Virus record (IMG/VR): IMGVR_UViG_3300003321_000657
Source: an uncultured virus (IMG/VR IMGVR_UViG_3300003321_000657)
Lineage: Duplodnaviria; Heunggongvirae; Uroviricota; Caudoviricetes
Reading direction: 5' to 3' (one strand)
Length of the DNA: 20,000 bases
Shown: in pieces, positions 3,320 to 18,685 of the stretch
How the letters are laid out: every line of letters starts with the position of its first letter
Position numbering within the stretch: position 1 is the first letter of the stretch
Notes under the pieces: model-generated
Databases searched by the model: none
Seen by the model: only the letters and a program-made list of their open reading frames with translations
Told to the model about the DNA's origin: nothing
Program-made: the position numbers and the translations under genes

Positions 3320-3791
3320 CGTCAACTGCGTGATCGCGGTGACCGGTCCGTCCGGTCACACGCAACTGGAATTTCGCGACGACGGCGTCGTGATCGACTG
3401 GGCCAAGACCACCGGTAAAGAGCGGGACATGATCACGGCCATGATCGAGAACGCCCGCAAGGAAGGCTTCACGACATGGGCGCTTAACGACGAAGACCAG
3501 CCGGAGGAGATCACGGAGAAGCTGCCCGGGTTCTTCTTCAACCGCAAAGGCCGCATGCTGCTCAAGACTGACTCGCCGCCAAAGTTGCAGGTGCTCGCCA
3601 AGGGCATCATTGATCAGCGCATCAAGAACGGCAAGGTGGCGATGGAGGTCGGAAAGGACGGAGAGTGGAAGATCATTTCCTTGGGCGATTTCCAGCTCAA
3701 GATCGCCGACAAAGAGCCCAAGATCAAGAAGGAAGTCGAGAAAAAAGAGCCGCAGAAAGTCCACGTTCAGGAAAAGATTGGAGGCGGCTGA
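3297..3791 (+). CDS. Protein ending in -IGGG; candidate ubiquitin-like modifier
   Basis: AAGGAG RBS; C-terminal KIGGG*; two similar segments (RKEGFTTWALNDED and KNGKVAMEVGKDGE). Confidence 0.6.
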   Translation: METKTSSDVNCVIAVTGPSGHTQLEFRDDGVVIDWAKTTGKERDMITAMIENARKEGFTTWALNDEDQPEEITEKLPGFFFNRKGRMLLKTDSPPKLQVLAKGIIDQRIKNGKVAMEVGKDGEWKIISLGDFQLKIADKEPKIKKEVEKKEPQKVHVQEKIGGG

Positions 3792-4003
3792 TGAGGCGCA
3801 TTTCAGAGCGAAGGCTCACGCGGCTGGAGTTCGAGGTCGGCAGCCACGATCCGCACCATCCACTCATTGACATGGTCGAGGAGATCCGCGCGCTGCGGAA
3901 GCTGGAGGAGGCTGTGCGCGCCCGCGGCGAACTGCCGGAAACGGCCGGGGAGATGGGCATCCGGGAAGAGCTGGCAAAGATCCCGGAGCTAAAGGAGGAG
4001 TGA
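3791..4003 (+). CDS. Hypothetical protein
   Basis: TGATG overlap, GGAGG RBS (MRRISERRL...). Confidence 0.7.
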   Translation: MRRISERRLTRLEFEVGSHDPHHPLIDMVEEIRALRKLEEAVRARGELPETAGEMGIREELAKIPELKEE

Positions 4004-4197
4004 TGAGCGAAAAATTCTGGTTCCGGTTAGCGGCAATGGCCTGTGGAACTCTTATCGGCATCATCGTGATCGTCGAGGTCTCGCGACATATGGAAGACCG
4101 GCTGTTGTACGAGTCTGGTCTGCGGCCGCAGGTTGAGCACGATGCTCTCGGCAATCGAAGGCTCTACTGGAGTCGGCCAGCATCGGAGCAGTTCTGA
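4003..4197 (+). CDS. Small single-TM membrane protein
   Basis: AGGAGG RBS; hydrophobic LAAMACGTLIGIIVIV. Confidence 0.7.
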   Translation: MSEKFWFRLAAMACGTLIGIIVIVEVSRHMEDRLLYESGLRPQVEHDALGNRRLYWSRPASEQF

Positions 4198-4475
4198 TGG
4201 CGTTCGACACGAAAAAGCTCAAGCCGCCGCCCGGGCATCCGCGCTTCCGGATCAAAGAGAACGGCGAGATCAGTTTCCAAGTCGCGCCAGTGAGCTACGG
4301 CTGGCGCTTTGTTAGAGAACTGGACGGATATGAGCGCGAATGCGTGTGTTGCGTGGCCTACCGTCACTGGCGGCTGATCCGCGACGAAAATCCAGAGAGC
4401 TGGGATAACATTAAGCAGGAAAAGATGGCGTCAGATCAGATGCGCTACTGGGATGATTTCCGAGAGAGTAAGTGA
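4197..4475 (+). CDS. Hypothetical protein (CxC-C cluster)
   Basis: TGATG overlap, GGAG RBS. Confidence 0.7.
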   Translation: MAFDTKKLKPPPGHPRFRIKENGEISFQVAPVSYGWRFVRELDGYERECVCCVAYRHWRLIRDENPESWDNIKQEKMASDQMRYWDDFRESK

Positions 4476-4759
4476 TCTACAGATACCGCGCCCGCTGCCG
4501 TCGTTGCAAGCGAGAGATCAGCAGCCCGGTCGAATGGCTGGATAAGCCGTACTGTATGTGCGGACGACAAATGGTTCGATTGCCGAATAGGACAGACGAT
4601 GAACTACGACATGACCACACCCTGCAACGACTGTCCATTCCTGAAAAAGTACAAGAAGGGATTCACGACGCGAAGGCTCCAAGAGTTCATACAGGGCGAG
4701 TTTCCGTGCCACAAGACGGCCGAAGACGACGAAGAGGAAGGGCTTGTCGGAACGGATAA
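4472..4759 (+). CDS. Zinc-ribbon protein; 3' half overlaps the next gene
   Basis: YRARCRRC...PYCMCGRQMVR; GTGA overlap. Confidence 0.55.
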   Translation: MIYRYRARCRRCKREISSPVEWLDKPYCMCGRQMVRLPNRTDDELRHDHTLQRLSIPEKVQEGIHDAKAPRVHTGRVSVPQDGRRRRRGRACRNG

Positions 4760-4889
4760 AAGCTCTCATTGCGCAGGCGCGCTCATCTATATGGAAAAGC
4801 ACAACCGTAGTCACCAGATGATGCGGATCGCTGAGCGTCTGTGCCTGTACGATCATACGAAGCTAAACATGGAGGCGGATGTACGATGA
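4599..4889 (+). CDS. Cys/His metal-binding phage protein (DUF6283-like)
   Basis: PCNDCPF...FPCHKT...HCAGAL pattern. Confidence 0.75.
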   Translation: MNYDMTTPCNDCPFLKKYKKGFTTRRLQEFIQGEFPCHKTAEDDEEEGLVGTDKSSHCAGALIYMEKHNRSHQMMRIAERLCLYDHTKLNMEADVR

Positions 4890-5125
4890 ACGATCCGCTG
4901 GTGGAAGTTCGTAACCCGCACGGCATCGATCTGATCAAGATCGCGTTCCGTCGCATGAAGGTTCCACAGAATGTCGTCGATCATCGCATTATCGCCGGAG
5001 ATTGTACGCGCGCTGGCGGCGACCGTATCTGTGAGCGCTGTGGCCTCGAATACCGCGATCATCCGGTAATCGACGGCATGGAGTTTCTTCACGTGATCTG
5101 CGATTGGAGGGTGTACAAGCTGTGA
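4886..5125 (+). CDS. Hypothetical zinc-binding protein
   Basis: RAGGDRICERCG..Y..HP...LHVICD; ATGA overlap. Confidence 0.75.
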   Translation: MNDPLVEVRNPHGIDLIKIAFRRMKVPQNVVDHRIIAGDCTRAGGDRICERCGLEYRDHPVIDGMEFLHVICDWRVYKL

Positions 5126-5127
5126 AT

Positions 5128-5430
5128 ATGATCACCCTGCCTGATCCGAGGGATGCCACGCGCATGATCGAGTTGGAGATCCCAGCCGACTGCGAGTATT
5201 TCCAGCGCGGAGTTTTGAAGCCGGTCTGGAATTTCGTTATGCCGCCCGGCCGCGGGATAGAGATCCGGATCTGCGCCGAGCTGCCAATCATTGCCGCCGT
5301 GGCCGCTGAGTGGTGGGACGCCAAGGCGCAATTCGAAATGTCTCAGAAGGACGACACTTACCGCGCATATGCGCGGAGATGGCGCTTATTCACGGCTCAA
5401 CCCACACTCGATAGCGCATTGGAGAACTGA
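5128..5430 (+). CDS. Hypothetical protein
   Basis: Fills the gap on the + strand; start at ATG 5128 or GTG 5122. Confidence 0.7.
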   Translation: MITLPDPRDATRMIELEIPADCEYFQRGVLKPVWNFVMPPGRGIEIRICAELPIIAAVAAEWWDAKAQFEMSQKDDTYRAYARRWRLFTAQPTLDSALEN

Positions 5431-5432
5431 CG

Positions 5433-6173
5433 ATGGATCATCCATTTGAACTGGCGCAGAATGCCGTCAAGATCGTCATCGAGCACGGCACGCATCACTC
5501 CGGCCGAAAACATATCGACGTCCAGCCGGAGTACTGCCTGAAATCCGCCGCTCAAGAGCTATCCGAATTAACGTTCGCAGAAGGCGTCTCACAGAACTGC
5601 GCGGCTGATAATAGACTAGAAGAGCTGGCCGACGTCTTCATCGCGCTCTTCCACTACAAGTTTAAAGTGCTCTATCAAATGCGAGACGGTATCACCGATC
5701 TTGAGCTGGCGCTCATGATCGTCAAGAAGCTGGCCGCGCGCAATGAAATGCCGCAGAGCTGGAAAGACAAATTGTGGTCGATCGAAGCATCGCTGATCAA
5801 TCAGCTACCGATCAGCAATAGAGATGAGTCTCCGTATCCAAAGCGCAAGACGCTTGCCGACTGCAAGACTCCGAACGAAGCGAAGGCGCTCAATGGCGAC
5901 AGTAACTACGTCTGCACGGGCAAGTGGTTAGAGGATTCTGGGCAAGCCGGGAGCGCAGTCGTCGTCAGTATCAACGGCAAGGACTGTTACTATCGCTACG
6001 GGCTTACGTGTGTGACCCTCTTCTGGCTCAAGGTCGAAGTGCTGGCGCGAAACGGTTACGGGGCCGATCAGCTCGAAGACTGGACACTCATTACCTACGG
6101 CGGATCACGCGTAGATCTAAACCAATTGGTCAGCGTTGGCACGTACTTCCTCAACAAACGTGGCGGAGCTTAA
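5433..6173 (+). CDS. MazG-like NTP pyrophosphohydrolase domain fused to a C-terminal DUF2604-like ubiquitin-like domain
   Basis: N-term QELSEL...RLEELADVFIAL (all-alpha NTP-PPase pattern). C-term VVSING...VLARNGY...EDWTL...G..VDLNQ...YFLNKRGGA. Confidence 0.6.
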   Translation: MDHPFELAQNAVKIVIEHGTHHSGRKHIDVQPEYCLKSAAQELSELTFAEGVSQNCAADNRLEELADVFIALFHYKFKVLYQMRDGITDLELALMIVKKLAARNEMPQSWKDKLWSIEASLINQLPISNRDESPYPKRKTLADCKTPNEAKALNGDSNYVCTGKWLEDSGQAGSAVVVSINGKDCYYRYGLTCVTLFWLKVEVLARNGYGADQLEDWTLITYGGSRVDLNQLVSVGTYFLNKRGGA

Positions 6174-6175
6174 AT

Positions 6176-7672
6176 ATGTGGGGTGAATTCCACGACTCTC
6201 CATACTTGGTCGCGCTGGCCGAGAATCCGGACTTCGTCCCGGAGAACGAACAGCGCGCCATGGAATTGATGCAATCGCTCTGCGATCCGGAGCGCTTTGG
6301 CATCTACATCCAGACTGGCTGCATCCACGCGCGCGGCAACCTCACGGGTAAGATCTACCGCATCGAACACGGTAAGGGCCACGGCGCCGGGTGCTGGGAG
6401 CTCGAAGATGGTAAGCCGCAGTTCTACTGGTGTACTACCAAGAGCGCAGAGACATGGAAGGCGGATATTCCCGACACCGACCATGTCCTCACGCTCAAGA
6501 ATATGATCGAGGGCGAAGAAGCGCGCTTCCGCACGATCGCCAATCGCAGCTCGGCCGACTACCACCGCATGGATACCTTCGAAGATGAGGGCAGCTACCG
6601 TAATTTTGCGGCCGTCATGAAACAGAGCCCGTACGAGATCTCGATCGCCAAGGAAAGTAGCGCACTCGAAAAGAAGCACGATCTGGGAGTGATGATCTAC
6701 CGCGACCCGTTCTTCGACGAGATCAAGAAGGACGGCGACTCTGGCTTCGAAGACAATGTCGACATGCTTACGGTCGGAGCTGAATCCATGTTCCGACTTC
6801 ACCCGCAGCTCAAGCGCTGGCGCAACAACGCCGGTCCGCATGACATTCAGATTCTCGATGAGATCCGCCCGGGCGATCTGGATCTTGTCCGCGTCTGCCG
6901 CACCAACGATCTGTGGCCGTACGAAGGTGAGCCGCCCGGCTACCCGGGTCCCCGCGCCACGGATGCCTACGCTTGCGAACGCTTCAATAAGGCACAGCGC
7001 CTCCATCACATGACCATGGCCTTCGACGATCGCGTAGAGCACATGGTCCGCAATGAAGCGGCCGATCTTGGTCCCGATAACGGCACCTGCTACTTACAAG
7101 GGTTTATCGACGGCATGGCAACTGCCCGGCCGCGTCGGCGTGAGCGTGAATGGGCCGGGCTGGAGCGTCTCGATATCAACCCAGCAGACGCAGAAGGCTA
7201 CGTCCCGGGCTTTCTTGAAGCGGACGACATGCAGGCGCACATGGAGCCGCGCGATGCCGCCATCTTCCGCGACGCGTACATGCGCGGCCTTGAAGCCCGC
7301 AATCAACAGAACAATCAGCTCAACTATGGATTTGGAAACTACTACCCGCTGGCGATCAATGGTCCGATCGATTGCGGATACAATGCGAGAACTTTGACGG
7401 TCACAAACAGCGCCTACTACACAATTAAGCCGCTCAAGGCGGAGATCGGCGAGATCAGTGACTCGCCCGGCAGGCGCTGCGAAAGGCTCGAAGACTTCTT
7501 CGCCATAGCGTGCGAATACGACGCCATGGCCGGAATCGATGACGCGGCCGAGCTCAAAGAGATTCCTAACGAGGATCTTACAGCCGCGAAGTGGGATAAT
7601 GATAAGGTTTGTGGAGTCGATCTGAACCTACCCGACGTGGGGATCATGAAGTATTTCGAGGAGGTGGCATGA
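6176..7672 (+). CDS. Large phage protein with an N-terminal Cys-containing domain
   Basis: GGAG RBS, ATG 6176 two bases after the previous stop. RAMELM..L...G...TGKIYRI...FYWC...IP..D.VLTLK.MIEGEE.RF..IANR; later short YxxGFxx repeats. Confidence 0.75.
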   Translation: MWGEFHDSPYLVALAENPDFVPENEQRAMELMQSLCDPERFGIYIQTGCIHARGNLTGKIYRIEHGKGHGAGCWELEDGKPQFYWCTTKSAETWKADIPDTDHVLTLKNMIEGEEARFRTIANRSSADYHRMDTFEDEGSYRNFAAVMKQSPYEISIAKESSALEKKHDLGVMIYRDPFFDEIKKDGDSGFEDNVDMLTVGAESMFRLHPQLKRWRNNAGPHDIQILDEIRPGDLDLVRVCRTNDLWPYEGEPPGYPGPRATDAYACERFNKAQRLHHMTMAFDDRVEHMVRNEAADLGPDNGTCYLQGFIDGMATARPRRREREWAGLERLDINPADAEGYVPGFLEADDMQAHMEPRDAAIFRDAYMRGLEARNQQNNQLNYGFGNYYPLAINGPIDCGYNARTLTVTNSAYYTIKPLKAEIGEISDSPGRRCERLEDFFAIACEYDAMAGIDDAAELKEIPNEDLTAAKWDNDKVCGVDLNLPDVGIMKYFEEVA

Positions 7673-7887
7673 AACTGGTCGATACCGACAAGGTCGTGGA
7701 GTACGACGACAGCCCGGAGATGCAGCGCAAGGTCTTTGACCGCGTCATCAAATGGTTTGTCGAGCACGACGTCTTCGCGGGCGAGTCCGTGGCGCAGATG
7801 GATTCGTGTCAGGTAGACGCTGCTCCGCTGATGGAGGAGCTTGCAGACGATGTCATCCGGTTCAAGGTGAACTATAAGGAGAGCTGA
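7669..7887 (+). CDS. Hypothetical phage protein
   Basis: GGAGGT RBS, ATGA overlap (MKLVDTDK...). Confidence 0.8.
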   Translation: MKLVDTDKVVEYDDSPEMQRKVFDRVIKWFVEHDVFAGESVAQMDSCQVDAAPLMEELADDVIRFKVNYKES

Positions 7888-7889
7888 GT

Positions 7890-8075
7890 GTGATCGGCCA
7901 AATGAAACGGATGTTCATCGCTGCTCTGATTAAAGGTCCGTTCGCGACGGTCGCAGCGATTTGCGTCTACTGTGCATGCCGATACGGAGAATATAGCCCA
8001 GCCGGATGCGCTGCCTTCGTTACGGCCGCGCTCCTCATCAACAATGCAATGGATGAGACAGAACGTGGCAGATGA
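7890..8075 (+). CDS. Small membrane protein (2 TM)
   Basis: AGGAG RBS; two hydrophobic segments. Confidence 0.6.
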   Translation: MIGQMKRMFIAALIKGPFATVAAICVYCACRYGEYSPAGCAAFVTAALLINNAMDETERGR

Positions 8076-8574
8076 TATCAAGCCTTTCACGCACCAGCTC
8101 TTCATCATCCAGAAGAGCACGGGGAACTTCTGTCGGTTGACCGGCTGGAAAGATTACGAAAACGTTTCTGAAATTTGGCTACCAATCGGAATCAGGAGCC
8201 CGGAGCAATGGCACGAGATACTAAAACAGCACGGCGGAGACCGGTGGCAGGCAACAAGCGAGTACAAAAGCGTCGCGGTCGATGTAGCTGCGGAAACCGC
8301 ACCAGCGGCGAAGGACGACTCTGTAACGAATGCTACATCGCGGACTGCTTGTGAGATCCGCTATCCGACCTGCCCGGTCTGCAAGAAGACTTGGGAGCTT
8401 GAGGTCGGAAAGGAATACTCCGCGCCGGGCAATCCGGGACTGACATACCTGCCGGTCATGACACAGCGCGGCCGGGCGACGTGTCCGAAGTGTACGTTCG
8501 ATCCGAAGTACCGATCGTCCGGCCGTGATACGGTCAATTCACTGGTGGCGCGACAGCGGGAGAAGAAGCACTGA
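8065..8574 (+). CDS. Hypothetical protein with C-terminal zinc ribbon; start uncertain (8044/8053/8065)
   Basis: CPVC...CPKC. Confidence 0.65.
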   Translation: MADDIKPFTHQLFIIQKSTGNFCRLTGWKDYENVSEIWLPIGIRSPEQWHEILKQHGGDRWQATSEYKSVAVDVAAETAPAAKDDSVTNATSRTACEIRYPTCPVCKKTWELEVGKEYSAPGNPGLTYLPVMTQRGRATCPKCTFDPKYRSSGRDTVNSLVARQREKKH

Positions 8575-8801
8575 TGATCCCACGCGGAAAAGAAGGCGAC
8601 TACCTTGTTGAGATCGAAGTAGACGGCGTCTTCTCGCACCGGAAGTTTACCGGCGAGCATGCGAGCGCCAAGGCTGACACGTATGCCGCCAACATGAAAG
8701 CCAAGGCGTCGTACATCCGCATCTTCCGCTGGGATGGCTGGCATTCGGTAGCGTTCATTACTGGAGATCTCAATGGAAAAGTGCACACAAACCGGCGTTG
8801 A
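8574..8801 (+). CDS. Hypothetical protein
   Basis: TGATG overlap, GGAG RBS. Confidence 0.7.
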   Translation: MIPRGKEGDYLVEIEVDGVFSHRKFTGEHASAKADTYAANMKAKASYIRIFRWDGWHSVAFITGDLNGKVHTNRR

Positions 8802-9222
8802 TGTTCATGACTGCCGGTACTGCCAAGGCGAAGCTTGTAACCTCTGTGGCGCCGGATGCTGGAATAGCCGCGAGCGCAACTGCGAGCATGATGTAGTGCA
8901 ACGTCACGAGGGTGTCTGTATTCCAAAGAAAGCAGCAGTCGAAAAGATCCTAAAGCAGATTGAGAAACAGAACGAACGCGAACGCGAGAAAGAGCGCAAG
9001 GAACGCGAAGAAGCAGGGCGCGAACACGTCGTCGGTAAGTGCGTTGTTTGCGATGGCATCATCAAGGAGCATAAGTCAATCGAGCACACGCGCCTTGGTC
9101 CTGCGATCTACGGTCCGGGATCGCGAGGACAGATGAGTCACGGCGTCGTGCTTCACGGATACTACTGCATCGATTGCGGCATCAAGTACCAGCATCCGCC
9201 TAAGAAAGGCAAGAAGCGATGA
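8773..9222 (+). CDS. Cys-rich protein: two zinc-binding modules joined by a coiled coil
   Basis: CRYC, CNLC, CVVC, CIDC; E/R/K-rich linker. Confidence 0.75.
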   Translation: MEKCTQTGVDVHDCRYCQGEACNLCGAGCWNSRERNCEHDVVQRHEGVCIPKKAAVEKILKQIEKQNEREREKERKEREEAGREHVVGKCVVCDGIIKEHKSIEHTRLGPAIYGPGSRGQMSHGVVLHGYYCIDCGIKYQHPPKKGKKR

Positions 9223-9253
9223 AACTCTACCGCGATTTTTTGAGGGTGCGAGC

Positions 9254-9565
9254 GTGAGCATTCCGATGCACGGCGGATACCGCAAAGGTAGCGGCCGCAA
9301 AAAATCCTACGAGATCAAGCGCGAGTGGGATATCGGCAAGTGGGTCGTAAAGCGGATGAAGCCGACCGGCCGCGAGCGCGGATTTATGAAATGCTACACG
9401 TGCCGCCTGCCGAAGAGTAAGACAGTAGAGCTGGTGATCGGAAATCAAGGCTTCAACATCGGCGAGTATGAAAAGCGGCCGCACGGAGACTGGATGCGTC
9501 TGATGCTGGCGCGGGCGCTCATCCGACTGGTCGAACGCGAAACGGAAACGAGGGCTGCACAGTGA
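9254..9565 (+). CDS. Basic hypothetical protein
   Basis: HGGYRKGSGRK (GGxRxGAGR-like DNA-binding motif); GAGG RBS. Confidence 0.65.
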   Translation: MSIPMHGGYRKGSGRKKSYEIKREWDIGKWVVKRMKPTGRERGFMKCYTCRLPKSKTVELVIGNQGFNIGEYEKRPHGDWMRLMLARALIRLVERETETRAAQ

Positions 9566-9804
9566 GGAAATTTATTCGGCGGTATGTCGCTCGCTCGAAG
9601 CGAGGAGGTGGCTACGCCTGCGAGGGCGATACGTCATGCTCGATCGACCATTGCAAACGCGTCAGTGACGCCAAGCTGTTTTACGGCCCAAGCGCAATAT
9701 CCCAATGGATGGGAGGACACTACAAAGGCTACGAAGCCGTTCCTGTTAAAATCAGCTACGATCTCGGAGCGGCTGAGGAGATTCAAGCTCCAGTGGATGA
9801 TTAA
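9562..9804 (+). CDS. Hypothetical protein
   Basis: GTGA overlap. Confidence 0.65.
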   Translation: MRKFIRRYVARSKRGGGYACEGDTSCSIDHCKRVSDAKLFYGPSAISQWMGGHYKGYEAVPVKISYDLGAAEEIQAPVDD

Positions 9805-9807
9805 TCC

Positions 9808-10053
9808 GTGGCCAAAAGTAAATTCGAAATAAACGACGTCGTCGATTGCCCGTACTGCGGCCGTCGTGGGACCATCGTCAACCGCTGGGGCGGCGGCGAT
9901 CATCCGATCTCCTACCACGTCATCCATAAATGGGCGTGGGTCGATCTCCCGGGCAAGATGGGTGGTACGATCAAGGCAGAAGTTGTGTTAGAATCGTGTT
10001 GGAAAGGCGTCAAACGCATCAACCCTGACTTCATCGAAGAGGAGCCTTTTTGA
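9808..10053 (+). CDS. Small beta-barrel-like phage protein with acidic-PF tail
   Basis: KFEINDVV...GTIV (SH3/KOW-like start); ends EEEPF. Confidence 0.65.
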   Translation: MAKSKFEINDVVDCPYCGRRGTIVNRWGGGDHPISYHVIHKWAWVDLPGKMGGTIKAEVVLESCWKGVKRINPDFIEEEPF

Positions 10054-10436
10054 TGGAAAGACCAGTCGAGTTCGCTGAGTATCTTTCTGGTTACAGCCCG
10101 GTCTTATATGACGGTTGGTGTGGGGAACCAACAGCGTGGGGATTTAAAATCAGGCAGCGTATGGGAGAAGACAAGTTCTCCGCTCTCAGTCGCTACATGA
10201 CATCAATCGGCGGCGGTACAGAATGTGTTACTCTTGGTGAGTGGGTCGCGGTCGTGACCTATCTAAAACCGCAGGAAGCTATTGAAAAATATGGAGCCAT
10301 TACTGAGGTAGTTACCGGACCTCGCGGTGGATTCCGCACCGTTAAATACGGAGAAAAGAAATTTGTTTGCAAGCGCCTTGATCCAAGGCGCGCAGAAATT
10401 CCGGTAGATCCACGATTGATTCGAGTTGAAAAATGA
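10053..10436 (+). CDS. Hypothetical protein, lower GC than neighbours
   Basis: GAGGAG RBS; coupled to both neighbours; many A/T-ending codons. Confidence 0.75.
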   Translation: MERPVEFAEYLSGYSPVLYDGWCGEPTAWGFKIRQRMGEDKFSALSRYMTSIGGGTECVTLGEWVAVVTYLKPQEAIEKYGAITEVVTGPRGGFRTVKYGEKKFVCKRLDPRRAEIPVDPRLIRVEK

Positions 10437-12097
10437 AGCTCGCAATGCCGAAAGACGCGTGGGGTCCATGGGAACCGCGCTGGTGGCAGGCCGATTCTCT
10501 CCCCAAGCTCATCACCGAGTACAACCAGCCCATCCCCGGATCAAATGTGGTCCGAGCCGTGACCGGCTCCGGCAAGAGTAAGTCTATGGCGCAATTGGCC
10601 GCGTGCGCCATTCTCGAACCGAACGAATGTATAGTCGTTTCCACGCCATCCAAGTTTCTCGTCGAACAACTGGAAGACACCTTCCGTGAGCGCCTCGAAG
10701 GCGGGTTCATGTCTGGGACCAAGCGCGTCGGTACGTTCTACACCGACAGCAAAGACTACATGACCCCCATCATCATCTGCTGCACACCCAGCTTGGAAGA
10801 GCTGGCTAAGCGACTGGAGGCAAGTAAGCGCCGATGCGCGCTGTGGATCTGCGACGAAGTCCACCGCAGCTACGCGGCCATGGTCGTCAATGGCATCGAA
10901 AAGCTGCGGCCGCTGGCGTCGCTAGGCTACGGCGCCACGCCTTACCGGGCGAAGTGGAGTGAAAGCCTGCATCTGTTCGATCAGCTCATCTACGAATACA
11001 AGCCAGAGCAGGCGATCAAGTACGGCGACGTCGTGCCATTCAGGGCTGTGTTCTGGAACGGCGGCGAAGGCGGACTGGATGATGCCTGTATATCAATGAC
11101 CGAGCTGGCCGATGGTCCGGGTATGTACAATGCCGTGTCGATCGACGATGCGGACATGTTCGCCATCAAGCTTAATGAGCAAGGGATACCGGCGCAGTCG
11201 ATCCACAGCCGGATGCCCAAGGCAGAGCGCAAGAAGCGTATCGAAGATCTGCGTACGGGCAAGCTGCGAGCATTGATCCACGTCAGCATCCTACAGGAGG
11301 GCGCAGATCTGCCGTGGCTGCGCTGGCTATGTATGCGACGGCCGGTGACCAGCCGCGTGCGCTTCATTCAGGAGATCGGCCGGGTCATCCGCGGCTACAC
11401 CGATAAGGTGACCGGGATCAAAAAGACCGAGGCCGTGCTTTACGATCCGCATGGACTCCTGCAAGACTTTTCAATGACGTACGACGAAGTACTGGGCGGC
11501 GAGCGGGAGGTGGAAGAGGACGATGAAGAAGAAAAGCCGTCCCAGAAAAAGAAGAAGGTCTTTGAACAGCTCATTTTTGAAGTCATGCGCGAGCTGGTTA
11601 ATGTGCGTGCTGGCAAGAAGCCGCTATGCGTCACGCCTCTGGCAGCGTATCTGACGGAGCTCACCACCGCCTTCGACCTCTGTCAGCTTATCGATAGCAA
11701 GATCACGAGCCGGGAATGGCGGCAGAAACCGGCCACAGAGAAACAGGCGACCGGCGCCAAGTACCTCTCCAAGGAAGCCAACCGGGCATGCGTCCCAAAA
11801 GTCCACCGCGCGCCATTAAAAATGCTGGCCGACACGGTCGGAAAATGGAGCGACGCCGGGCAGTTTACGCCCATGCTCAGCCGGGGTTTAGCGTCAGACC
11901 TGACGTCTGTCTTAATGTCGCTGGCCGATAAAAAATCTTGGCCAGACCTAAAGGTTTTGGACCGATCTGCCGAAGATAGTATGAGAGCACACGAGCAGCG
12001 GCAGCGCGAGCTGACCAACCGCCCGGCCACGGCCCAACAGATAGTGCTCCCGCACCAGAAGGTACACAAGAAGGAACAGGGGCCGCAACTTTTTTAA
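10433..12097 (+). CDS. Superfamily 2 DEAD/DEAH-box helicase (ResIII/Helicase_C)
   Basis: AVTGSGKS (I), DEVH (II), GATP (III), LQEGADLP (V), QEIGRVIR (VI); C-terminal PATEKQ...LSRGLAS motif. Confidence 0.93.
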   Translation: MKLAMPKDAWGPWEPRWWQADSLPKLITEYNQPIPGSNVVRAVTGSGKSKSMAQLAACAILEPNECIVVSTPSKFLVEQLEDTFRERLEGGFMSGTKRVGTFYTDSKDYMTPIIICCTPSLEELAKRLEASKRRCALWICDEVHRSYAAMVVNGIEKLRPLASLGYGATPYRAKWSESLHLFDQLIYEYKPEQAIKYGDVVPFRAVFWNGGEGGLDDACISMTELADGPGMYNAVSIDDADMFAIKLNEQGIPAQSIHSRMPKAERKKRIEDLRTGKLRALIHVSILQEGADLPWLRWLCMRRPVTSRVRFIQEIGRVIRGYTDKVTGIKKTEAVLYDPHGLLQDFSMTYDEVLGGEREVEEDDEEEKPSQKKKKVFEQLIFEVMRELVNVRAGKKPLCVTPLAAYLTELTTAFDLCQLIDSKITSREWRQKPATEKQATGAKYLSKEANRACVPKVHRAPLKMLADTVGKWSDAGQFTPMLSRGLASDLTSVLMSLADKKSWPDLKVLDRSAEDSMRAHEQRQRELTNRPATAQQIVLPHQKVHKKEQGPQLF

Positions 12098-12180
12098 GGA
12101 ATCGCAAGTAATTTTGTGATTTTCACTATAGACGAGATGAGCTTTGCCGATTATATAGAAAGCGTTTTGTAAATTTGTGA
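12098..12180. promoter_or_regulatory. AT-rich putative promoter region
   Basis: Sharp AT enrichment in an intergenic gap; TTGCCG and TATATA/TAAATT-like boxes, but no well-spaced consensus pair. Confidence 0.4.
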
Positions 12181-12236
12181 GCGCAACGCTCCGCCGAGTC
12201 AACTAGATCACGCGCGAAAGCGCACGGGGAAATCGA

Positions 12237-12332
12237 ATGTCTGCCAACGTCAATAAACCTTCCACCGCCCGCAGCCACACGTCAACAAGCACGAACCGAA
12301 GTGCCGAGGTAACGCTCGGCGAATCCTCGTAA
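12237..12332 (+). CDS. Putative 31-aa Ser/Thr-rich leader peptide
   Basis: GGGGA RBS; MSANVNKPSTARSHTSTSTNRSAEVTLGESS*; overlaps the structured leader. Confidence 0.35.
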   Translation: MSANVNKPSTARSHTSTSTNRSAEVTLGESS

Positions 12333-12448
12333 CAAGCGCCCGTCACGACACCAGCCGCGCCGAAGGGACTGTCACGGCGCATTTCTGCAACACCGCTGCG
12401 GGCGGTGGTTGCTTGGTGTTTTGCACGAGTGAACTCATGTTACGAGGA
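12262..12448 (+). ncRNA. Structured leader/antisense-like RNA with alternative folds
   Basis: 14-bp perfect stem 12262-12275/12395-12408; inner hairpins 12303-12320 and 12336-12380; 11-nt anti-RBS 12324-12334 complementary to 12438-12448. Confidence 0.65.
12387..12422 (+). terminator. Conditional intrinsic terminator (alternative fold)
   Basis: GCAACACCGC-TGCGG-GCGGT(G)GTTGC followed by TTGGTGTTTT. Confidence 0.45.
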
Positions 12449-12454
12449 GGAGTT

Positions 12455-12823
12455 ATGAGTGTCAATCGTCAATTGGTGGAGCTGGAGCGCCGTCTGCGTT
12501 CCGAGTTCTTTGAAGAGATCCAGCGTATCGACAAGCGTATCGACGCCTTCTTTGAAAAACAGAAGAAGGCCAAGGACGCCGTCGATAAGATCCGCAGCGT
12601 GCAGGCTGAGAACACGCGGCAGCAGAACGAACGGGACGGGAAGAAGCTGCTGGAGATTCGCAAGGCGACCGGGCTGGATCAGTTCTATTTCGCGAAACGT
12701 TTCAAGAAAAGCCAAGCTTCTATCTGCATGATGGAGAAGGGTTTGCGAAGTTCTCGCAAGCTCTTGGATCAGATTGCCACGGATTCGGAGTTCCAACAGA
12801 TGGTGAAAGGACAGTCGGCATGA
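12455..12823 (+). CDS. Coiled-coil plus C-terminal XRE-type HTH regulator
   Basis: GAGGAGG RBS; LLEIRKATGLDQFYFAKRFKKSQASICMMEKG. Confidence 0.8.
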   Translation: MSVNRQLVELERRLRSEFFEEIQRIDKRIDAFFEKQKKAKDAVDKIRSVQAENTRQQNERDGKKLLEIRKATGLDQFYFAKRFKKSQASICMMEKGLRSSRKLLDQIATDSEFQQMVKGQSA

Positions 12824-13011
12824 GCCTGAACTTGGAGCAGTTGCAGAAGATCGCTGAGCGCGCCCGGGTCACAGATCGAGCGGACGCATCCTTCCGTCGC
12901 GACTTCGATCGCGCATTTACGCCGGACGTTGCGATCGAGCTTATCAAGCGTGTTCGGGAGGCAGAAGCTAAGCCCGCCGTAGCGGTCGAAGGACTTGAGA
13001 ACGTGACTTAA
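12820..13011 (+). CDS. Small Ead/Ea22-like phage protein
   Basis: LEQLQKIAERA...AFTPDVAIELIKRVREAE. Confidence 0.6.
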   Translation: MSLNLEQLQKIAERARVTDRADASFRRDFDRAFTPDVAIELIKRVREAEAKPAVAVEGLENVT

Positions 13012-13016
13012 AGCAA

Positions 13017-13048
13017 CCCGGCCTCGGAGCGCAACATCCGAGGCCGGG
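13017..13048 (-). terminator. 12-bp perfect hairpin, probable leftward terminator
   Basis: CCCGGCCTCGGA-8nt-TCCGAGGCCGGG; followed by TTGCTTT on the minus strand. Confidence 0.55.
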
Positions 13049-13158
13049 CAACGAGAAGGACGCGTCATGGCGGGCGCATCAAACAGCTAATCTTTTACCT
13101 GCCTGACGCTCCTCCGTCAACGTTATTTTTGAAACGTTTTCGAAAATGGAGGGAGCCA

Positions 13159-13503
13159 ATGACACGCAAGCGCAAGCGCAAGATTTACGCGCGCAAACCG
13201 CATCAGGACGGCTGGATCGACGGCCGTCGCGTACACCGTTTCAGATCGCGCGCGTACTGCGACACTTGCGGTCGCAGCTTCAATAAGGACCGCGCCGAAG
13301 CCGCTGGCCATATCTACACGCCAGCGCACGCAGACTACTACGGCGAGTGGGTCGAAGAACACACCATGTGTAAGGACTGCGTAGACAGCCTCAACGCGTG
13401 GTGCGACGAAGAAATGAAACGCATGGACGCGGATATGGCGCTCGAACAAGAGCGCAACGATGAGTTCAGAAGGATGGCCGAGACTGCGGAGGCGCAGGCA
13501 TGA
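13159..13503 (+). CDS. Zinc-finger hypothetical protein
   Basis: GGAG RBS; CDTCG...MCKDC. Confidence 0.75.
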   Translation: MTRKRKRKIYARKPHQDGWIDGRRVHRFRSRAYCDTCGRSFNKDRAEAAGHIYTPAHADYYGEWVEEHTMCKDCVDSLNAWCDEEMKRMDADMALEQERNDEFRRMAETAEAQA

Positions 13504-13730
13504 CTGAAGGCTATACGTGCTGGATCGACGGCGATCCTCACAACTGCGAGCGCGTCGAAGCTGATACCCCCAGCGATGCGGCTGAGATCTTCCTTCACGA
13601 TCGCGCTCAGTACGACAATAGTCTGATCAACAACTACACGAAAGTGCTCGTTCAACTGGGCAATTCAGTCAAGGAATACTCTGTCCTATGCGAATACCAC
13701 CTTGAGGCTGCGGCCGAGGAGCTTGAATGA
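13500..13730 (+). CDS. Hypothetical protein
   Basis: GGAGG RBS, ATGA overlap; VEADTPSDAAE motif. Confidence 0.75.
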   Translation: MTEGYTCWIDGDPHNCERVEADTPSDAAEIFLHDRAQYDNSLINNYTKVLVQLGNSVKEYSVLCEYHLEAAAEELE

Positions 13731-14059
13731 CCGACAAGGAAATCAACGACGCCTGTGCGTCGATCGTGATGGGCTGGAAACAGAAGGTGATCTGGGAAGG
13801 CGGAATCGGACTTCCGCAGTGGTGCGTCGGCGACAAGCCAGCCCAGCGAATCGATGGCTGGAATCCAGCCGAGAGCCTCGAACAGGCCAAGATCCTGCTC
13901 GATAAGATGCGCGTGCGCGAACATGTCGTCATCATCGAAAAGACCCATCGCGGTCCGTGGACTGTATCGCTCGACGGCATCGGCGTCGGCACAGATCCGG
14001 AGAATCTGGCGCGGGCGATCTGCAAAGCCTGTCTGGAAATGCATGGAGTCAGCGCATGA
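13727..14059 (+). CDS. Phage ABA-sandwich (BC1872-like) protein
   Basis: MTDKEIN..A..VMGW...WNP.....A..L...LARAICKACL. Confidence 0.78.
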   Translation: MTDKEINDACASIVMGWKQKVIWEGGIGLPQWCVGDKPAQRIDGWNPAESLEQAKILLDKMRVREHVVIIEKTHRGPWTVSLDGIGVGTDPENLARAICKACLEMHGVSA

Positions 14060-14337
14060 AGACGCCGGAGCCGCCCACAGACGCAGAGCTGGACCGGCTG
14101 GAGAAGGATCACATCTTCTTCGGCCCCAGCGGCTGTACGCAGGTCGTGATCGAAAAGGCGAAGCTGTACGCGCTGATCGCAGGCTGTCGGAAGTTCAATG
14201 CAATGCGGGACTCTATGGAAGAGTTCGCGGCCAAGATGGTCAAATGCGAGGCATGCGGCGTCGAATTCCCGACGCGCGAGACGACGACGGATGGAGCTTA
14301 CGTTATCTGCAAGGCATGCTCGGAGAAACACCTGTGA
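14056..14337 (+). CDS. Hypothetical protein with C-terminal zinc ribbon
   Basis: CEACG...ICKAC; GGAG RBS, ATGA overlap. Confidence 0.72.
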   Translation: MKTPEPPTDAELDRLEKDHIFFGPSGCTQVVIEKAKLYALIAGCRKFNAMRDSMEEFAAKMVKCEACGVEFPTRETTTDGAYVICKACSEKHL

Positions 14338-14382
14338 AGACCGTTTTTAAAATCATAGCTTCACATTCGATGAGGAGCCCTC

Positions 14383-14793
14383 ATGAGCGACTGCGACGAG
14401 CCAGACTTCTACAACGAACACTTCCGCACTGCGCGCAAGTGGCACAAATGCTGTGAGTGCGAAACGCTGATCGATCCCGGCGACAAGTACGTAGCCTGCG
14501 TCGGCAAATGGGATCGCAGCGTTCACGTTTATAAACAACATCTGTGCTGCTACCACATAGCCCGCTTCGTCAACCTTGATCTGCTGTCCTACTGGCCAGA
14601 CCTTCCAGAAGGACTACGCTACGCGCCTTTTCGTGAAAAAGTCCGCGAGGCATGCATCTCGTTTGGCGGGATTAAGTACGCCGTCGATGAGTTTTCCATA
14701 GGTGATTTCGAAAATTGCGTAGATGTGCTGGGATACTGGCAGCGCTGGCTCTCTGGAATTCGCGAAACGTTTTCAGAAGGAGCTGGGATATGA
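14383..14793 (+). CDS. Phage zinc-finger protein
   Basis: TARKWHKCCEC...I.PG.KY...HLCC; GAGGAG RBS. Confidence 0.8.
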   Translation: MSDCDEPDFYNEHFRTARKWHKCCECETLIDPGDKYVACVGKWDRSVHVYKQHLCCYHIARFVNLDLLSYWPDLPEGLRYAPFREKVREACISFGGIKYAVDEFSIGDFENCVDVLGYWQRWLSGIRETFSEGAGI

Positions 14794-15677
14794 GCCAGAA
14801 GAAAGCCATGTCGGCTGCCGACGTCATGAACAGCATCCGCGCGCGCTTCGCGGCGCAGAATGAATACACGGTGCTACAGCAGGTCGCCAACGCCACTGGC
14901 ATGTCTTGTTACTCATGGATCGATGCCGTGGTCATCAGCCTGTGGCCGTCGGCCGGGTGCAAGCGTAGCGCCTACGAGATCAAGGTCCACCGCGGTGATT
15001 GGCTGCGCGAGCGCGAGAACCCAGAGAAGAACCAGTGGGTGCGCGAATACTGCCACGAGTTTAGCTACGTAGCGCCCAACGGGATCATCAAAGAGGATGA
15101 GCTCCCGGCCGGAGTCGGTCTCTACCGCGCGAATGAGAAGACGATCACTGTCGTGCGGGCTCCGTCGTACCGCAATGATGCCAAGCTGGATGATGAGTTT
15201 CTCGCGGCTCTGGCGCGCGCTATGGACAAAGAGTTTCGGCGTAAGGAAGCGGAGCTGCATAAGACATTCAAGAACGATAATCGAGAATTTCGCTTGGCAG
15301 CCGTGTGGCAGGCAGCCGCGCATTCGTTCATCCGGCTTAGCGCTCAGTGGGCATCTGACCCGGACCCCACGGCGCCCGATGCGGTCACAAAGGCGCTGGA
15401 GCAGCTTAAAGCGGCTGGCGGCGGAAAAGCCGACCAGCGCGACAGGAAGCAGATAGAAGAATGCTGCTCACGCTTTCGCGAACACATCGCCGACAGCATG
15501 CAATTCTTTCTAGCCTTCGCGTACTACGGCATGCTCGATTTAGGCGAGCACCAGAATTTCATCCTGAACTACTACGGAACGTACGACGAGAAGGCGCTTC
15601 TTTCGAAAATGGAGAAGAACAAAGACAAGATGCGGGATGCGTTTTTGGAGCTGGTGAAGGCGAATCCAAGGGAGTGA
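14790..15677 (+). CDS. MmcB-like PD-(D/E)XK nuclease-fold protein
   Basis: IDAVVISLWPS...AYEIKVHRGDW.RE..NPEK...CHEFSYVAP...ELPAGVGL. Confidence 0.8.
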   Translation: MSQKKAMSAADVMNSIRARFAAQNEYTVLQQVANATGMSCYSWIDAVVISLWPSAGCKRSAYEIKVHRGDWLRERENPEKNQWVREYCHEFSYVAPNGIIKEDELPAGVGLYRANEKTITVVRAPSYRNDAKLDDEFLAALARAMDKEFRRKEAELHKTFKNDNREFRLAAVWQAAAHSFIRLSAQWASDPDPTAPDAVTKALEQLKAAGGGKADQRDRKQIEECCSRFREHIADSMQFFLAFAYYGMLDLGEHQNFILNYYGTYDEKALLSKMEKNKDKMRDAFLELVKANPRE

Positions 15678-15678
15678 T

Positions 15679-17004
15679 GTGGCGGCGGATAGTGACCTGC
15701 TGACGATTAAGCAGAGCGAACAGCTCATTCTGCAAGCGCTCGGTATCGACGCGCCCGGGTCGCACTGTCTCTGCCCACTCTGTAAACACAAGGCGCTTCG
15801 CGTCGGCTTGGAGAAGAAAGGCAGCGGCGTCTATCTCTGCCAGTGTATGAAATGCAATGGGGTCAAGGGCGACATCTTCAGCGTCTATAAGCTGGTCCAC
15901 AATCTCGAATTCAAACAGGCGCTGGCGATCTGCTGTGAGAAGCTCGGGATCAAGAACGGGACTGGCGGTGGTTACACGCGCACTCATGGCGTGCGGGCGC
16001 TCGATATCGACACCACGATCGCCGAAGCACAGCACAATCAGGATCAGCTCGAAAGCGAAGCGCCGGAGTCGGCCGAACTCGATATGGCCATGGCCGAGGA
16101 GTTCATCGACACCCATCACCGCTATCTCATGGACACGCAGAGTTGTATCGACACATGGCTCAAAGGTAAGCGCGGGATCTCTGAGGCTGTCGCCGAACAA
16201 TACCGGCTTGGCTTCGTCGAGAACTCCACGATCAAAATGTGGAGTAAAAAACATCAGAGCTGGTTTGATTCATATACTGAGGGCGCGTGGGTCCTTCCGA
16301 TCACGGACTGGCGCGGGAAGCTGCGCGCGATCAAGCTGCACTTCGAAGTCGTCGGCCGCTTCGGTAAGTGCGTCTGGATGCCTGTCGGCAAAGATCCGGA
16401 GAAGCGCTACGTCAGCTACAACACTTTCTGGCCGCACCTTTACTCGCAGTCCAAGTCTCTGCGGCCGGTAAACTTCACCGACGATCCGCTGTGGTGGCTA
16501 TCCAAGCTGCCTGACGGAGAATTGAAAGACCGCTTCGAATCGCAGAAGCAAATCAACGCGTTGACCTTCGCCTACGATCAGAAAAAAGCGGTCGAGGATT
16601 TGACTCCAGCACAGTGGGAGCAAATTATTCGCGAAACGTTTCCTGATTTTCAGAAGGATATCCAGAATGAGATATTGGCGCGCGGAGGCAAAGTCCAGCC
16701 GCCGCGCAATGTCCACGGATGGACGATCTGGGCGCCCGGCGAGCTCAAGGCGCTGGCATACGTGTCGGTGGCGGTGCAGGCGACGGCGCTGACGGCTGGC
16801 GAGGGCTATATCCCGCCGCCCGGCATGCTGCGCTGTTTCCGCGGACGACGCGTGGCGATCAATTGGGACGCCGACGTACCGAAGGTGGATGAGCAGGGGC
16901 AGATCCGCTGCACCGGCCGCGAGTTTGCCCATAAGGCAGTCGACGCATTAAAGAAAACCAGTGGCGTAAGAGAGGTTCGCGCTTTCACATGGGGAAGAAA
17001 ATAG
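15679..17004 (+). CDS. DNA primase-like protein (zinc finger plus incomplete TOPRIM)
   Basis: CPLC..H...CQCMKC..KGDIF...F.QA; WL.GKRGIS..V.EQYRLG; WVLPITD..G....IKL; WAPGELKAL; INWDAD. Confidence 0.82.
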   Translation: MAADSDLLTIKQSEQLILQALGIDAPGSHCLCPLCKHKALRVGLEKKGSGVYLCQCMKCNGVKGDIFSVYKLVHNLEFKQALAICCEKLGIKNGTGGGYTRTHGVRALDIDTTIAEAQHNQDQLESEAPESAELDMAMAEEFIDTHHRYLMDTQSCIDTWLKGKRGISEAVAEQYRLGFVENSTIKMWSKKHQSWFDSYTEGAWVLPITDWRGKLRAIKLHFEVVGRFGKCVWMPVGKDPEKRYVSYNTFWPHLYSQSKSLRPVNFTDDPLWWLSKLPDGELKDRFESQKQINALTFAYDQKKAVEDLTPAQWEQIIRETFPDFQKDIQNEILARGGKVQPPRNVHGWTIWAPGELKALAYVSVAVQATALTAGEGYIPPPGMLRCFRGRRVAINWDADVPKVDEQGQIRCTGREFAHKAVDALKKTSGVREVRAFTWGRK

Positions 17005-17013: not shown

Positions 17014-18354
17014 ATGGAAGCGGTTGCAGACATTCGTGACATCGTTCCGATCAAAGAACTCCCTCCCGAAGAATACGAAATCGAGAAATCAAAAAAGAAG
17101 GTGGACGCCAACGACAAGGTCGTCGAGCTCGGACCCTTCGGCGTCCTTGACGCGCTGGCCGAGGCGATCGACGCCCAGCCGCCCGTCTTCCGCGGTAAAT
17201 CCAAGATCGTCTCCCTACGGGATCTGCGGGCGCTCTATCCAAAGATGCGGGACCCCGTGATCGACGGCCTACTGCGCAAGGGCGAGATCATGAATATCAT
17301 TGCCGCGCCCAAGGCCGGTAAGAGCTGGCTAAGCCTTGATCTCACGCTGGCGGTGATTCAGGGCGCGAAGTGGTTCGGAAAATTCGATACGAAGCCCGGC
17401 CGCGTGCTGATCGTCGACAACGAACTGCATAAAGAGACGATCACGTTCCGAACACACGCTTCTGCACAGGCGCGAGCCATAAAACTCGACATGCAGTACG
17501 TCGATGACATGGTCGATTACATCCCTTTGAGGGGTGAATTAGTCGATTTGGAGCGGCTGGCCGACGAGCTGGCGGACATAGAACCGGGCGAGTATCGACT
17601 GATCATTCTCGATGCATTTTACCGGTTCATGCCACCCCGGACCGACGAAAACGACAATGGACAGATGACTAGCCTCTATAACCGTCTGGACTTATACGCA
17701 AACCAGACGGACGCGGCGATCTGCCTGATCCACCACACCACCAAGGGCCTTCAGGGCGGAAAGAAGGTCACCGACGTCGGAGCCGGTGCAGGTGTACAGT
17801 CCCGGGCGACGGACACCCACATGATCCTCCGGCCGCACAAGGAGCCGGACGTGATCGTGCTGGACGCGGCCGTGCGCTCATTCAAGCAGCCGCAGGCGCT
17901 GTGTCTCCGGCGCAAGTTTCCTACGTGGGAGATCGATACCAAGCTCAACCCGGAGGACCTCGAAGGCGTCGGCACCCAGAGCGAATTCACCCAGAACCGG
18001 CAGGTTCGTGAAGTCGAAAAGGAGCGCCTGCTGAACGCGTTGACGTCCTTCAAGACGATCAAGGAGATGGTCGCGATCGCCACCCAGATGGGCCTCAAAC
18101 TGGGCTACGGAGCCATTAACGCCGTCGTGACACAGAACTGGGAGCCCAACGGCCGCGTGGTTGCCCAGACCGGCCAGAAAGGGCCGAAAAAGTACATGAA
18201 ATCCGGCACCCAGCCGTCCACGCAAGTCCAACAAACAGGACCATCAACGGAATCGAACGATTCGGGGCAAGATGAGGCTACGGAATTGAATGAGACCCTT
18301 GATGCTGCGTCGGATTTTACTGAAGAGGAGATTGAAGACGTTCCTCCGTTCTAG
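17014..18354 (+). CDS. RepA-type (AAA_25, RecA-superfamily) replicative helicase
   Basis: AAPKAGKS Walker A, IVDNE, LIILD Walker B, DEND, IHHTTKG, GAGAG; AGGAGG RBS; acidic EDVPPF tail. Confidence 0.92.
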   Translation: MEAVADIRDIVPIKELPPEEYEIEKSKKKVDANDKVVELGPFGVLDALAEAIDAQPPVFRGKSKIVSLRDLRALYPKMRDPVIDGLLRKGEIMNIIAAPKAGKSWLSLDLTLAVIQGAKWFGKFDTKPGRVLIVDNELHKETITFRTHASAQARAIKLDMQYVDDMVDYIPLRGELVDLERLADELADIEPGEYRLIILDAFYRFMPPRTDENDNGQMTSLYNRLDLYANQTDAAICLIHHTTKGLQGGKKVTDVGAGAGVQSRATDTHMILRPHKEPDVIVLDAAVRSFKQPQALCLRRKFPTWEIDTKLNPEDLEGVGTQSEFTQNRQVREVEKERLLNALTSFKTIKEMVAIATQMGLKLGYGAINAVVTQNWEPNGRVVAQTGQKGPKKYMKSGTQPSTQVQQTGPSTESNDSGQDEATELNETLDAASDFTEEEIEDVPPF

Positions 18355-18474
18355 TCAGCGATTTTAGGCAATGTAACATCAAAATCGATGACAATCATGC
18401 TGGAAAAGTGTTGACTTATCGAGAAAACGAAGTACAGGATAGATGTTCAAAATAAGGGTCTGTTCATAAGGAAT

Positions 18475-18564
18475 CGATATCAGTGACATTCAGTTAATCA
18501 TCATCAATATCGATCATTATGTAGTCGATATTGATGATGATTAAGCTAATAGTCACTGATATCG
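18475..18564. repeat. Long palindrome 1 (13-bp and 20-bp perfect arm segments)
   Basis: CGATATCAGTGAC 18475-87/18552-64; TTAATCATCATCAATATCGA 18494-513/18525-44; 11-nt loop. Confidence 0.95.
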
Positions 18565-18571
18565 GAGATAT

Positions 18572-18655
18572 AGTTCCTATAGAACTATGGGTGTTCTAAA
18601 ACACACCCGTGGATAGGGATGTGTTTTAGAACCCGGGATAGTTCTACAAGGAACT
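18572..18655. repeat. Long imperfect palindrome 2
   Basis: AGTTCCT/AGGAACT, TAGAACTAT/ATAGTTCTA, GTTCTAAAACACA/TGTGTTTTAGAAC, CCC/GGG. Confidence 0.92.
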
Positions 18656-18685
18656 CCGGTCGGAAAAGAAAACGGAGAGCAAAAG

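Follow-up and report, generated by a model that had tools for sequence, protein, structure and literature searches.

A structured leader with a putative upstream reading frame in front of an XRE-like regulator gene of an uncultured phage

Why does a tightly packed array of phage genes open into a gap of 357 nt directly in front of a small regulator gene? This question is raised by a stretch of 20,000 nt from an uncultured virus of the Caudoviricetes (IMG/VR record IMGVR_UViG_3300003321_000657; the whole stretch is referred to as the window, and the strand presented as the + strand), in which the gap separates the stop codon of a helicase gene (12097) from the ATG (12455) of a gene for an XRE-like helix-turn-helix (HTH) protein, here called the regulator. 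An earlier note had proposed a multi-state RNA switch at this place, being either an attenuator or an antisense RNA resembling C4 of phage P1 and CI of phage P4. Of this proposal, a cis-acting leader with several alternative states stood as the best reading of the locus, since its pairings are real, its 14-bp stem is rare, and an analogous leader was found in a relative, whereas membership in the C4/CI family did not stand. With a probability of roughly 0.45, we favour a leader that would sense ribosomes, the translation of a short upstream open reading frame (uORF) remodeling long-range helices that mask the ribosome-binding site (RBS) of the regulator, that is, translational coupling at a distance.

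Competing pairings in the leader

The gap contains a single ATG-initiated open reading frame (ORF) of at least 20 codons, namely the uORF (12237..12332, + strand), which consists of 31 codons followed by TAA (12330-32), holds 34 C and 20 G among its 96 nucleotides, and is preceded, 6 nt 5' of its ATG, by GGGGA (12226..12230, + strand), a motif resembling a Shine–Dalgarno (SD) sequence as read from the letters. Codons 9-13 of this frame carry the 5' arm (arm A, CCACCGCCCGCAGC, 12262..12275, + strand) of a perfect 14-bp stem, the 3' arm of which (arm C', GCTGCGGGCGGTGG, 12395..12408, + strand) is its exact reverse complement, with 119 nt in between and a duplex energy of -32.6 kcal/mol. Two hairpins are enclosed by this stem on the + strand: a 7-bp hairpin with a GCCGAG.../...CUCGGC core and a loop of 6 nt (12302..12321; -12.1 kcal/mol, z -3.58, reached by 1 out of 200 shuffles), and an imperfect, unremarkable one (12336..12380, z -0.35). 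The stem, its coordinates, and the 31-codon frame that covers the 5' arm had been described in the earlier note and were confirmed here.

A stem of this kind is rare for the window, as perfect inverted repeats of at least 14 bp with loops between 50 and 300 nt occurred in only 4 of the 200 dinucleotide shuffles of the 20-kb sequence (mean 0.02). At a length of 11 nt and with the same loop range, four perfect inverted repeats were observed compared to an expectation of 1.45 +/- 1.13, and the leader region accounts for two of them. The domain closed by the stem (12261-12409, 149 nt) has a minimum free energy (MFE) of -64 kcal/mol (z -3.68), none of the 200 shuffles being as stable, and was placed second among 250 sliding windows of 149 nt (z -3.14 with 30 shuffles each) in a scan that covered positions 11-12461 on a grid phased on the 14-bp repeat. 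The idea that the stem arms belong to a miniature inverted-repeat transposable element (MITE) or another repeat was dropped, since no further copy of the 14-mer was found in the window at up to one mismatch; at up to three mismatches, seven matches were counted versus 3.19 expected.

The second long-range pairing connects the end of the uORF with the regulator RBS. The anti-SD TCCTCGTAACA (12324..12334, + strand), which includes the uORF stop codon, is exactly complementary over 11 nt to TGTTACGAGGA (12438-48; duplex -16.2 kcal/mol), and this target overlaps the SD GAGGAGGAG (12444-52) preceding the regulator ATG, so that target and SD together occupy 12438..12452 (+ strand). The anti-SD:SD duplex of the window, with an energy of -20.2 kcal/mol, was matched by 14 out of 1000 shuffled leaders. 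Both the exact complementarity to the RBS region and the termination of the uORF inside the anti-SD are thus as previously claimed.

Two weaker elements lie between these helices. A hairpin resembling a terminator (12387-12412), followed by the T-rich but interrupted tail TTGGTGTTTT (12387..12422 in total, + strand), comprises 10-11 bp with one bulge and reaches -16.5 kcal/mol including its flanks. It is modest in its own right (z -1.44, 16 of 200 shuffles being as stable), and terminator-like sites in general are found at chance level (2 versus 1.6 +/- 1.4, and 19 versus 19.3 +/- 4.8). Arm C' represents the loop and the 3' arm of this hairpin, and because both structures use 12395-12408, the hairpin and the 14-bp stem are mutually exclusive, as had been noted before; in energetic terms, the stem A:C' acts like an antiterminator. 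The 5' arm of the same hairpin is provided by a junction, here called junction B (TGCAACACC, 12386..12394, + strand), which can instead pair with target D (GGTGTTTTGCA, 12415..12425, + strand), where 6+3 bp with GGTGTT..GCA surround a 2-nt bulge (-9.0 kcal/mol). This pairing, together with a 3-bp GAG-TGAA-CTC hairpin (12427..12436, + strand) flanked by both targets, was also recovered as described, albeit being too weak to stand alone.

Predicted folds place the alternative states of the leader that includes the SD close to each other. For 12180-12470, the MFE of -99.5 kcal/mol includes A:C', and forcing the anti-SD:SD pairing changed it to -98.3 kcal/mol. In transcripts that end between 12412 and 12425, A:C' outcompetes the terminator by about 10-13 kcal/mol. 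When the transcript extends through the SD, less than 2 kcal/mol separates the states, as a switch would show. With A:C' forced and both junctions and their targets kept single-stranded, -83.4 kcal/mol was obtained; formation of both duplexes would contribute another -16.2 and -9.0 kcal/mol before any pseudoknot penalty. A pseudoknotted state would thereby come near the others, and a C4-like way of working, as distinct from membership in that family, is therefore possible.

The corresponding leader in a syntenic relative

Relatives of this locus proved to be scarce. Among 50,697 phage records, no DNA match to positions 10000-15000 of the window was found, tblastn detected no homologs of the regulator in phage records, and the helicase encoded upstream of the gap shared 28% identity or less with proteins of GenBank phages. 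Scans of viral contigs using the regulator, the helicase, and two regulator alignments (A2 and A4) as queries did not yield regulator relatives, and a word-index search with the regulator returned only the regulator itself. A full HMMER search revealed a tiny family consisting of the regulator of the window, the product of a metagenome locus (L027), and two further proteins (P0126 and P0175), all other matches being generic or multi-HTH proteins. The latter include P0113-P0125, metagenomic proteins of up to 1048 aa that are likewise matched by the regulator profile and that line up 5-9 HTH stretches in tandem, an unusual architecture.

The helicase served as the anchor for synteny, since homologs with up to 60% identity are available. 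An alignment of 22 helicases led to 47 loci (24 viral, 4 metagenome, and 19 genome loci), and a regulator homolog was located downstream of the helicase in only one of them, L027, as determined by tblastn and by a hidden Markov model of alignment A4 applied to six-frame ORFs. L027 is a metagenome contig of 1860 bp, the regulator of which is 33% identical to that of the window. Furthermore, P0126 and P0175 are encoded on the same contigs (121 kb and 110 kb) as the closest helicases (P0002 and P0003, with 60% and 58% identity), and therefore represent two further syntenic relatives, known here as proteins alone. The shared contigs indicate a lineage of large uncultured phages featuring the same helicase–regulator neighborhood.

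An alignment of the leaders of the window and L027 revealed no meaningful similarity, and yet the architecture recurs. The L027 leader contains a uORF of 21 codons (ATG at 1154, TAG at 1217-19) with the SD GAGGAG at 1140-45. Its codons 1-8 (1155-76) form a 22-bp helix with 1267-92 (7+6+9 bp, two bulges, one G-U pair), which spans the SD AGGAGG and extends to the nucleotide directly 5' of the regulator ATG (1293). With -40.8 kcal/mol, this duplex was reached by 1 of 1000 shuffles, and the 147-nt domain in L027 is even more stable relative to its shuffles (z -4.69, 0 of 200) than the domain in the window. A second anti-SD of 7 nt, CCTCCTA (1212-18), includes the uORF stop. Accordingly, both leaders have in common a uORF with its own putative RBS, the translation of which is likewise putative, a long helix that links the interior of the uORF to a place just upstream of or over the regulator SD, and, at the stop codon of the uORF, an anti-SD of the CCUC type. 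This architecture of uORF plus clamp was found in the one syntenic relative with a readable leader (1/1).

A proposed ribosome-sensing leader and its alternatives

According to the reading that we favour, the 3' ~275 nt of the gap would be transcribed, starting from its AT-rich head, into a structured 5' leader able to sense whether ribosomes occupy the uORF. In the resting RNA, the clamp A:C' would close the 147-nt domain and tie the uORF to the region before the regulator, and the 11-nt anti-SD with the uORF stop could pair with the regulator SD. A ribosome translating the uORF would have to unzip arm A, and a ribosome reaching the UAA would also have to unzip the anti-SD:SD helix, so that the regulator SD would become accessible only while the uORF is being translated. 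Arm C', once freed, would let the adjacent terminator-like hairpin form, which may represent a weaker, window-specific layer added at the level of transcription.

The cost of opening the regulator SD, as computed in a simple nested model, clearly favors unmasking by way of the uORF in L027, and does so weakly in the window. In L027, this cost drops from 20.0 to 9.8 kcal/mol when a ribosome footprint is placed at the uORF start, and is unchanged for a footprint at the uORF stop. In the window, 8.1 kcal/mol are required in the free leader and 11.6 kcal/mol with arm A masked, a difference counted in favor of the proposal. Also in its favor, the + strand has a lower z value than the - strand in both phages (-3.68 versus -2.77 in the window and -4.69 versus -3.75 in L027).

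Several results weigh against a ribosome-sensing leader. A footprint at the uORF stop hardly shifts the opening cost in the window (8.1 to 7.8 kcal/mol), and a local hairpin over the regulator AUG persists with the uORF stop masked. Of 16 other genes in the window, two have a complement to their SD within the upstream 246 nt that is as strong as the -20.2 kcal/mol of the leader. Coding windows at z near -3 also exist, those at 861, 10811, and 10261 coming close to the leader domain, and the whole span 12237-12457 (221 nt) is unremarkable, as 35 of 200 shuffles fold equally well (z -0.84). The SD of the uORF (GGGGA) is weak, the uORF peptides of the window and L027 are unrelated, and a site scan found no sigma-70-like promoter on the + strand. 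Across the whole window, no Rfam family was matched at the gathering score. Finally, L027 is a single comparator; its clamp covers the SD itself, whereas the clamp of the window ends 36 nt before the SD, and its leader is devoid of a terminator-like hairpin.

Elements of the proposed mechanism are established elsewhere. In the MS2 coat–replicase pair and in the rpmI-rplT genes of E. coli, the downstream SD pairs inside the upstream translated frame and is unmasked by ribosomes. The window resembles these systems in having an SD complementary to sequence inside an upstream frame; however, the upstream frame is a full-length gene there, whereas in the window and L027 an HTH regulator is preceded by a uORF of 21-31 codons, the peptide of which is not conserved. 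In the plasmid leaders repY-repZ and repB-repA (IncI-alpha/IncB) and tap-repA (R1), translation of a leader ORF opens a structure that sequesters the rep RBS, with long-range or pseudoknot pairings being involved. The likeness lies in a short leader ORF that, in the window, would have to be translated to open an RBS-masking structure. In the plasmids, though, the leader ORF terminates at the main RBS or overlaps it, while the uORF stop of the window is 122 nt away from the main ATG and the SD would be reached only via pairing. In addition, the plasmid systems receive their input from an antisense RNA (Inc/CopA), whereas the promoter-like site on the - strand of the window is at chance level and an antisense RNA is unsupported. 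This site (TTGACA-17-TAACAT, 12465-12437), directed antisense into the leader, is the best sigma-70-like site of the window (10/12); as a promoter it was rejected, since sites of at least 10/12 appeared in 62 of 100 shuffles, no terminator follows on the - strand, and the site is not kept in L027. A survey in Sinorhizobium meliloti describes uORFs with an SD in 5' leaders that affect the output of the main ORF, with translational coupling at work in some cases, and those it describes overlap or adjoin the main RBS (PMC13285730, as far as its account of these uORFs goes), whereas the link in the window would be a long-range helix.

Among the competing explanations, a DNA-level element (two binding sites for a protein, the termini of a small segment that moves or inverts, or a portion of an origin) or chance pairing without function in GC-rich sequence survives best, and we consider it unlikely. 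Both A:C' and anti-SD:SD consist entirely of Watson–Crick pairs, and the strand is consequently not fixed by G-U pairs. Moreover, the - strand of the domain folds well too (z -2.77), the overall z value of the leader is inconspicuous, and control genes reach similar SD duplex energies, as stated above. On the other hand, the 14-bp repeat is rare by shuffling and its 14-mer recurs nowhere else in the window at up to one mismatch, and neither joints nor variants were seen over the leader region in the contigs, which stem from three DNA runs of one study that contain the stretch wholly or in part, one of them possibly being its source. No RNA run was listed as containing it. The L027 helix, with its bulges and a G-U pair (U1163-G1281), fits RNA better than DNA.

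Classical ribosome-mediated attenuation would treat 12387-12412 as an intrinsic terminator and arm A as the antiterminator; a ribosome on uORF codons 5-17, slowed, for example, at a Ser/Thr-rich stretch, would hide arm A and cause termination before the regulator. The shared segment 12395-12408 and the position of arm A within the uORF agree with this explanation, as do the 12 Ser/Thr codons among the 31 of the uORF, and because A:C' is favored by ~10-13 kcal/mol at the decision point, the terminator would form only with arm A masked. The trpL, thrL, and hisL attenuators likewise possess a leader ORF, antiterminator and terminator pairings that exclude each other, and, preceding the structural gene, a hairpin of the terminator type. 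In the window, however, the antiterminator strand lies inside the leader ORF, and the logic would therefore be inverted relative to the trpL type, a ribosome on arm A causing termination. Furthermore, the uORF contains no run of any single amino acid that could act as a regulatory codon run, the hairpin is ordinary by shuffling and its tail is broken by GG, terminator-like sites do not exceed chance, and other strong hairpins of the same phage (13017-48) are devoid of a T tail. L027 contains neither such a terminator nor a Ser/Thr run. Attenuation as the main mode of action appears decidedly unlikely.

A more elaborate scheme would join these ideas into a three-state, two-level switch of a class outside Rfam, in which the ~147-nt clamp domain, its 5' strand being read by ribosomes on the uORF, acts as an antiterminator, presents two single-stranded junctions that pseudoknot in the fashion of C4/CI with a bipartite target over the SD, and represents the sensor that opens both locks upon uORF translation. 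We regard it as very unlikely; if true, it would gate the XRE regulator heading the replication genes in an uncultured phage lineage with contigs of ~110-130 kb.

Cleavage by RNase III, as it controls the lambda N leader and the T7 early mRNAs, or by another double-strand-specific enzyme could also be considered, the clamp helices being cleavage signals that govern how stable or translatable the regulator mRNA is, and the uORF being incidental. A 22-bp helix in L027 and a perfect 14-bp helix in the window, each between two + strand array genes, would suit such processing, but 14 bp are short for RNase III, and the SD-bearing uORFs as well as the anti-SD at both uORF stops would be left unexplained, making this explanation highly improbable.

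The antisense mode proposed by the earlier note deserves a closer comparison. C4 and CI RNAs are small stable RNAs freed from a leader by RNase P. In P1/P7 and P4, a domain closed by a stem exposes two single-stranded elements that match, as complements, a bipartite, RBS-overlapping target in the same transcript, and a small ORF precedes the controlled gene. The window may share both traits: its bipartite complementarity amounts to 11 nt perfect plus the weak, bulged 6+3 nt, and the junctions are predicted to be single-stranded. Junctions 12324-34 and 12386-94 of the 147-nt domain would pair with 12415-25/12438-48, either in cis by forming a pseudoknot or, following processing, in trans, and would block the SD, with energies near those of the other states as given above. 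In the immI region of P1, the C4 antisense RNA is described as controlling Ant expression together with Icd (PMC8201110, in its account of this locus). Covariance-model searches against Rfam at E <= 10 in 12050-12550 returned only SBWMV2_UPD-PKk, ar14, and FinP, all weak and unrelated and none of C4 type, and no Rfam match was obtained in L027. Downstream of the leader, no ant/icd or Ant/KilA-type genes were found, their place being taken by the XRE-like HTH protein and small unknown proteins. By model match and gene context, family membership is therefore not supported. Taken together with the weak second pairing, a domain about twice the usual size of C4/CI RNAs, and an L027 leader in which the anti-SD lies in the closing helix rather than in a junction and junction and target are not separately arranged, a C4/CI-like antisense RNA is the least probable of the explanations.

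The locus and the significance of the leader

The leader is embedded in a + strand gene array of phage type, a replication module of an uncultured phage. The array includes genes for a Dam-like methylase, a DUF1064/resolvase-like protein, the SF2 helicase (ResIII/Helicase_C; 10433..12097), a Phage_ABA_S protein, a primase-like protein (15679-17004), an AAA_25 primase/helicase (17014-18354), and an HNH endonuclease, all of them encoded on the + strand. Neither tRNA nor tmRNA genes were found in the window, and a small - strand ORF (12203-12382, 59 aa) had no family match.

The regulator gene itself (12455..12823, + strand) encodes 122 aa with a coiled-coil-like N-terminal half and, as judged from its homologs and HTH matches, the HTH in the C-terminal half. 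The protein of the window has no Pfam match above threshold and no PHROG match of its own. The label XRE-like is nevertheless fair, because three of the four family members match HTH_3, HTH_19, or HTH_31, the L027 regulator reaching 24.4 bits for HTH_3 at a cutoff of 23. The earlier claim of an XRE operon leading to the primase/helicase genes holds only in part: the label is acceptable, but a perfect 12-bp GC-rich hairpin without a T tail (13017-48), directly 3' of a 63-aa ORF that follows the XRE-like gene, may mark the end of a two-gene operon well short of these genes, and the operon need therefore not reach them.

The gap is divided by composition into a head with a GC content of 0.40-0.45 over its first ~80 nt and a remainder with 0.56-0.64, the 5' half of which is C-rich and G-poor. 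The AT-rich head (12098..12180, + strand) is, by this composition, a candidate promoter or operator region. It contains the 9-mer TGTGATTTT (12115-12123), which recurs where the L027 gap has its own AT-rich head (1082-1090), the copy in the window being located within the palindrome GTGATTTTCAC; judged from the letters alone, this 9-mer is possibly a promoter or operator element. The adjoining sequence TTTCACTATAGACGAG (12121-12136) is present as one exact copy and one copy with three mismatches (- strand, 4782-4797), and a core within it resembles the one conserved among promoters of single-subunit RNA polymerases of the T7/SP6 type; no gene for such a polymerase was seen in the window.

Two further motifs were noticed elsewhere in the window. 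Three exact copies of the 14-mer TTCGCGAAACGTTT are present on the + strand (12689-12702, 14759-14772, and 16628-16641), each in another gene and in different reading frames, and four matches were seen at up to two mismatches, a number reached by none of 200 shuffles. Its copy at 16628 directly follows the promoter-like TTGACT-17-AATTAT, and the motif is a candidate for an operator or an internal promoter, perhaps for the XRE-like protein. The gap after the AAA_25 gene (18355-18685) contains nested perfect repeats in AT-rich DNA, a 13-bp repeat (18475-87/18552-64) surrounding a 20-bp repeat (18494-513/18525-44), followed by a 16-nt hairpin with 94% complementarity (18593-608/18617-32); the repeats between 18475 and 18632 are a candidate replication origin or strong terminator.

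The value of the leader lies mainly in providing a testable example and not a new principle, as coupling by uORFs, masking by an anti-SD, and attenuation are already established. If confirmed, it would be a further instance of a uORF connected to the main RBS only via long-range pairing, possibly in combination with an antiterminator, and it would couple the synthesis of a phage regulator to the translational state of the host, in a lineage without a cultured relative.

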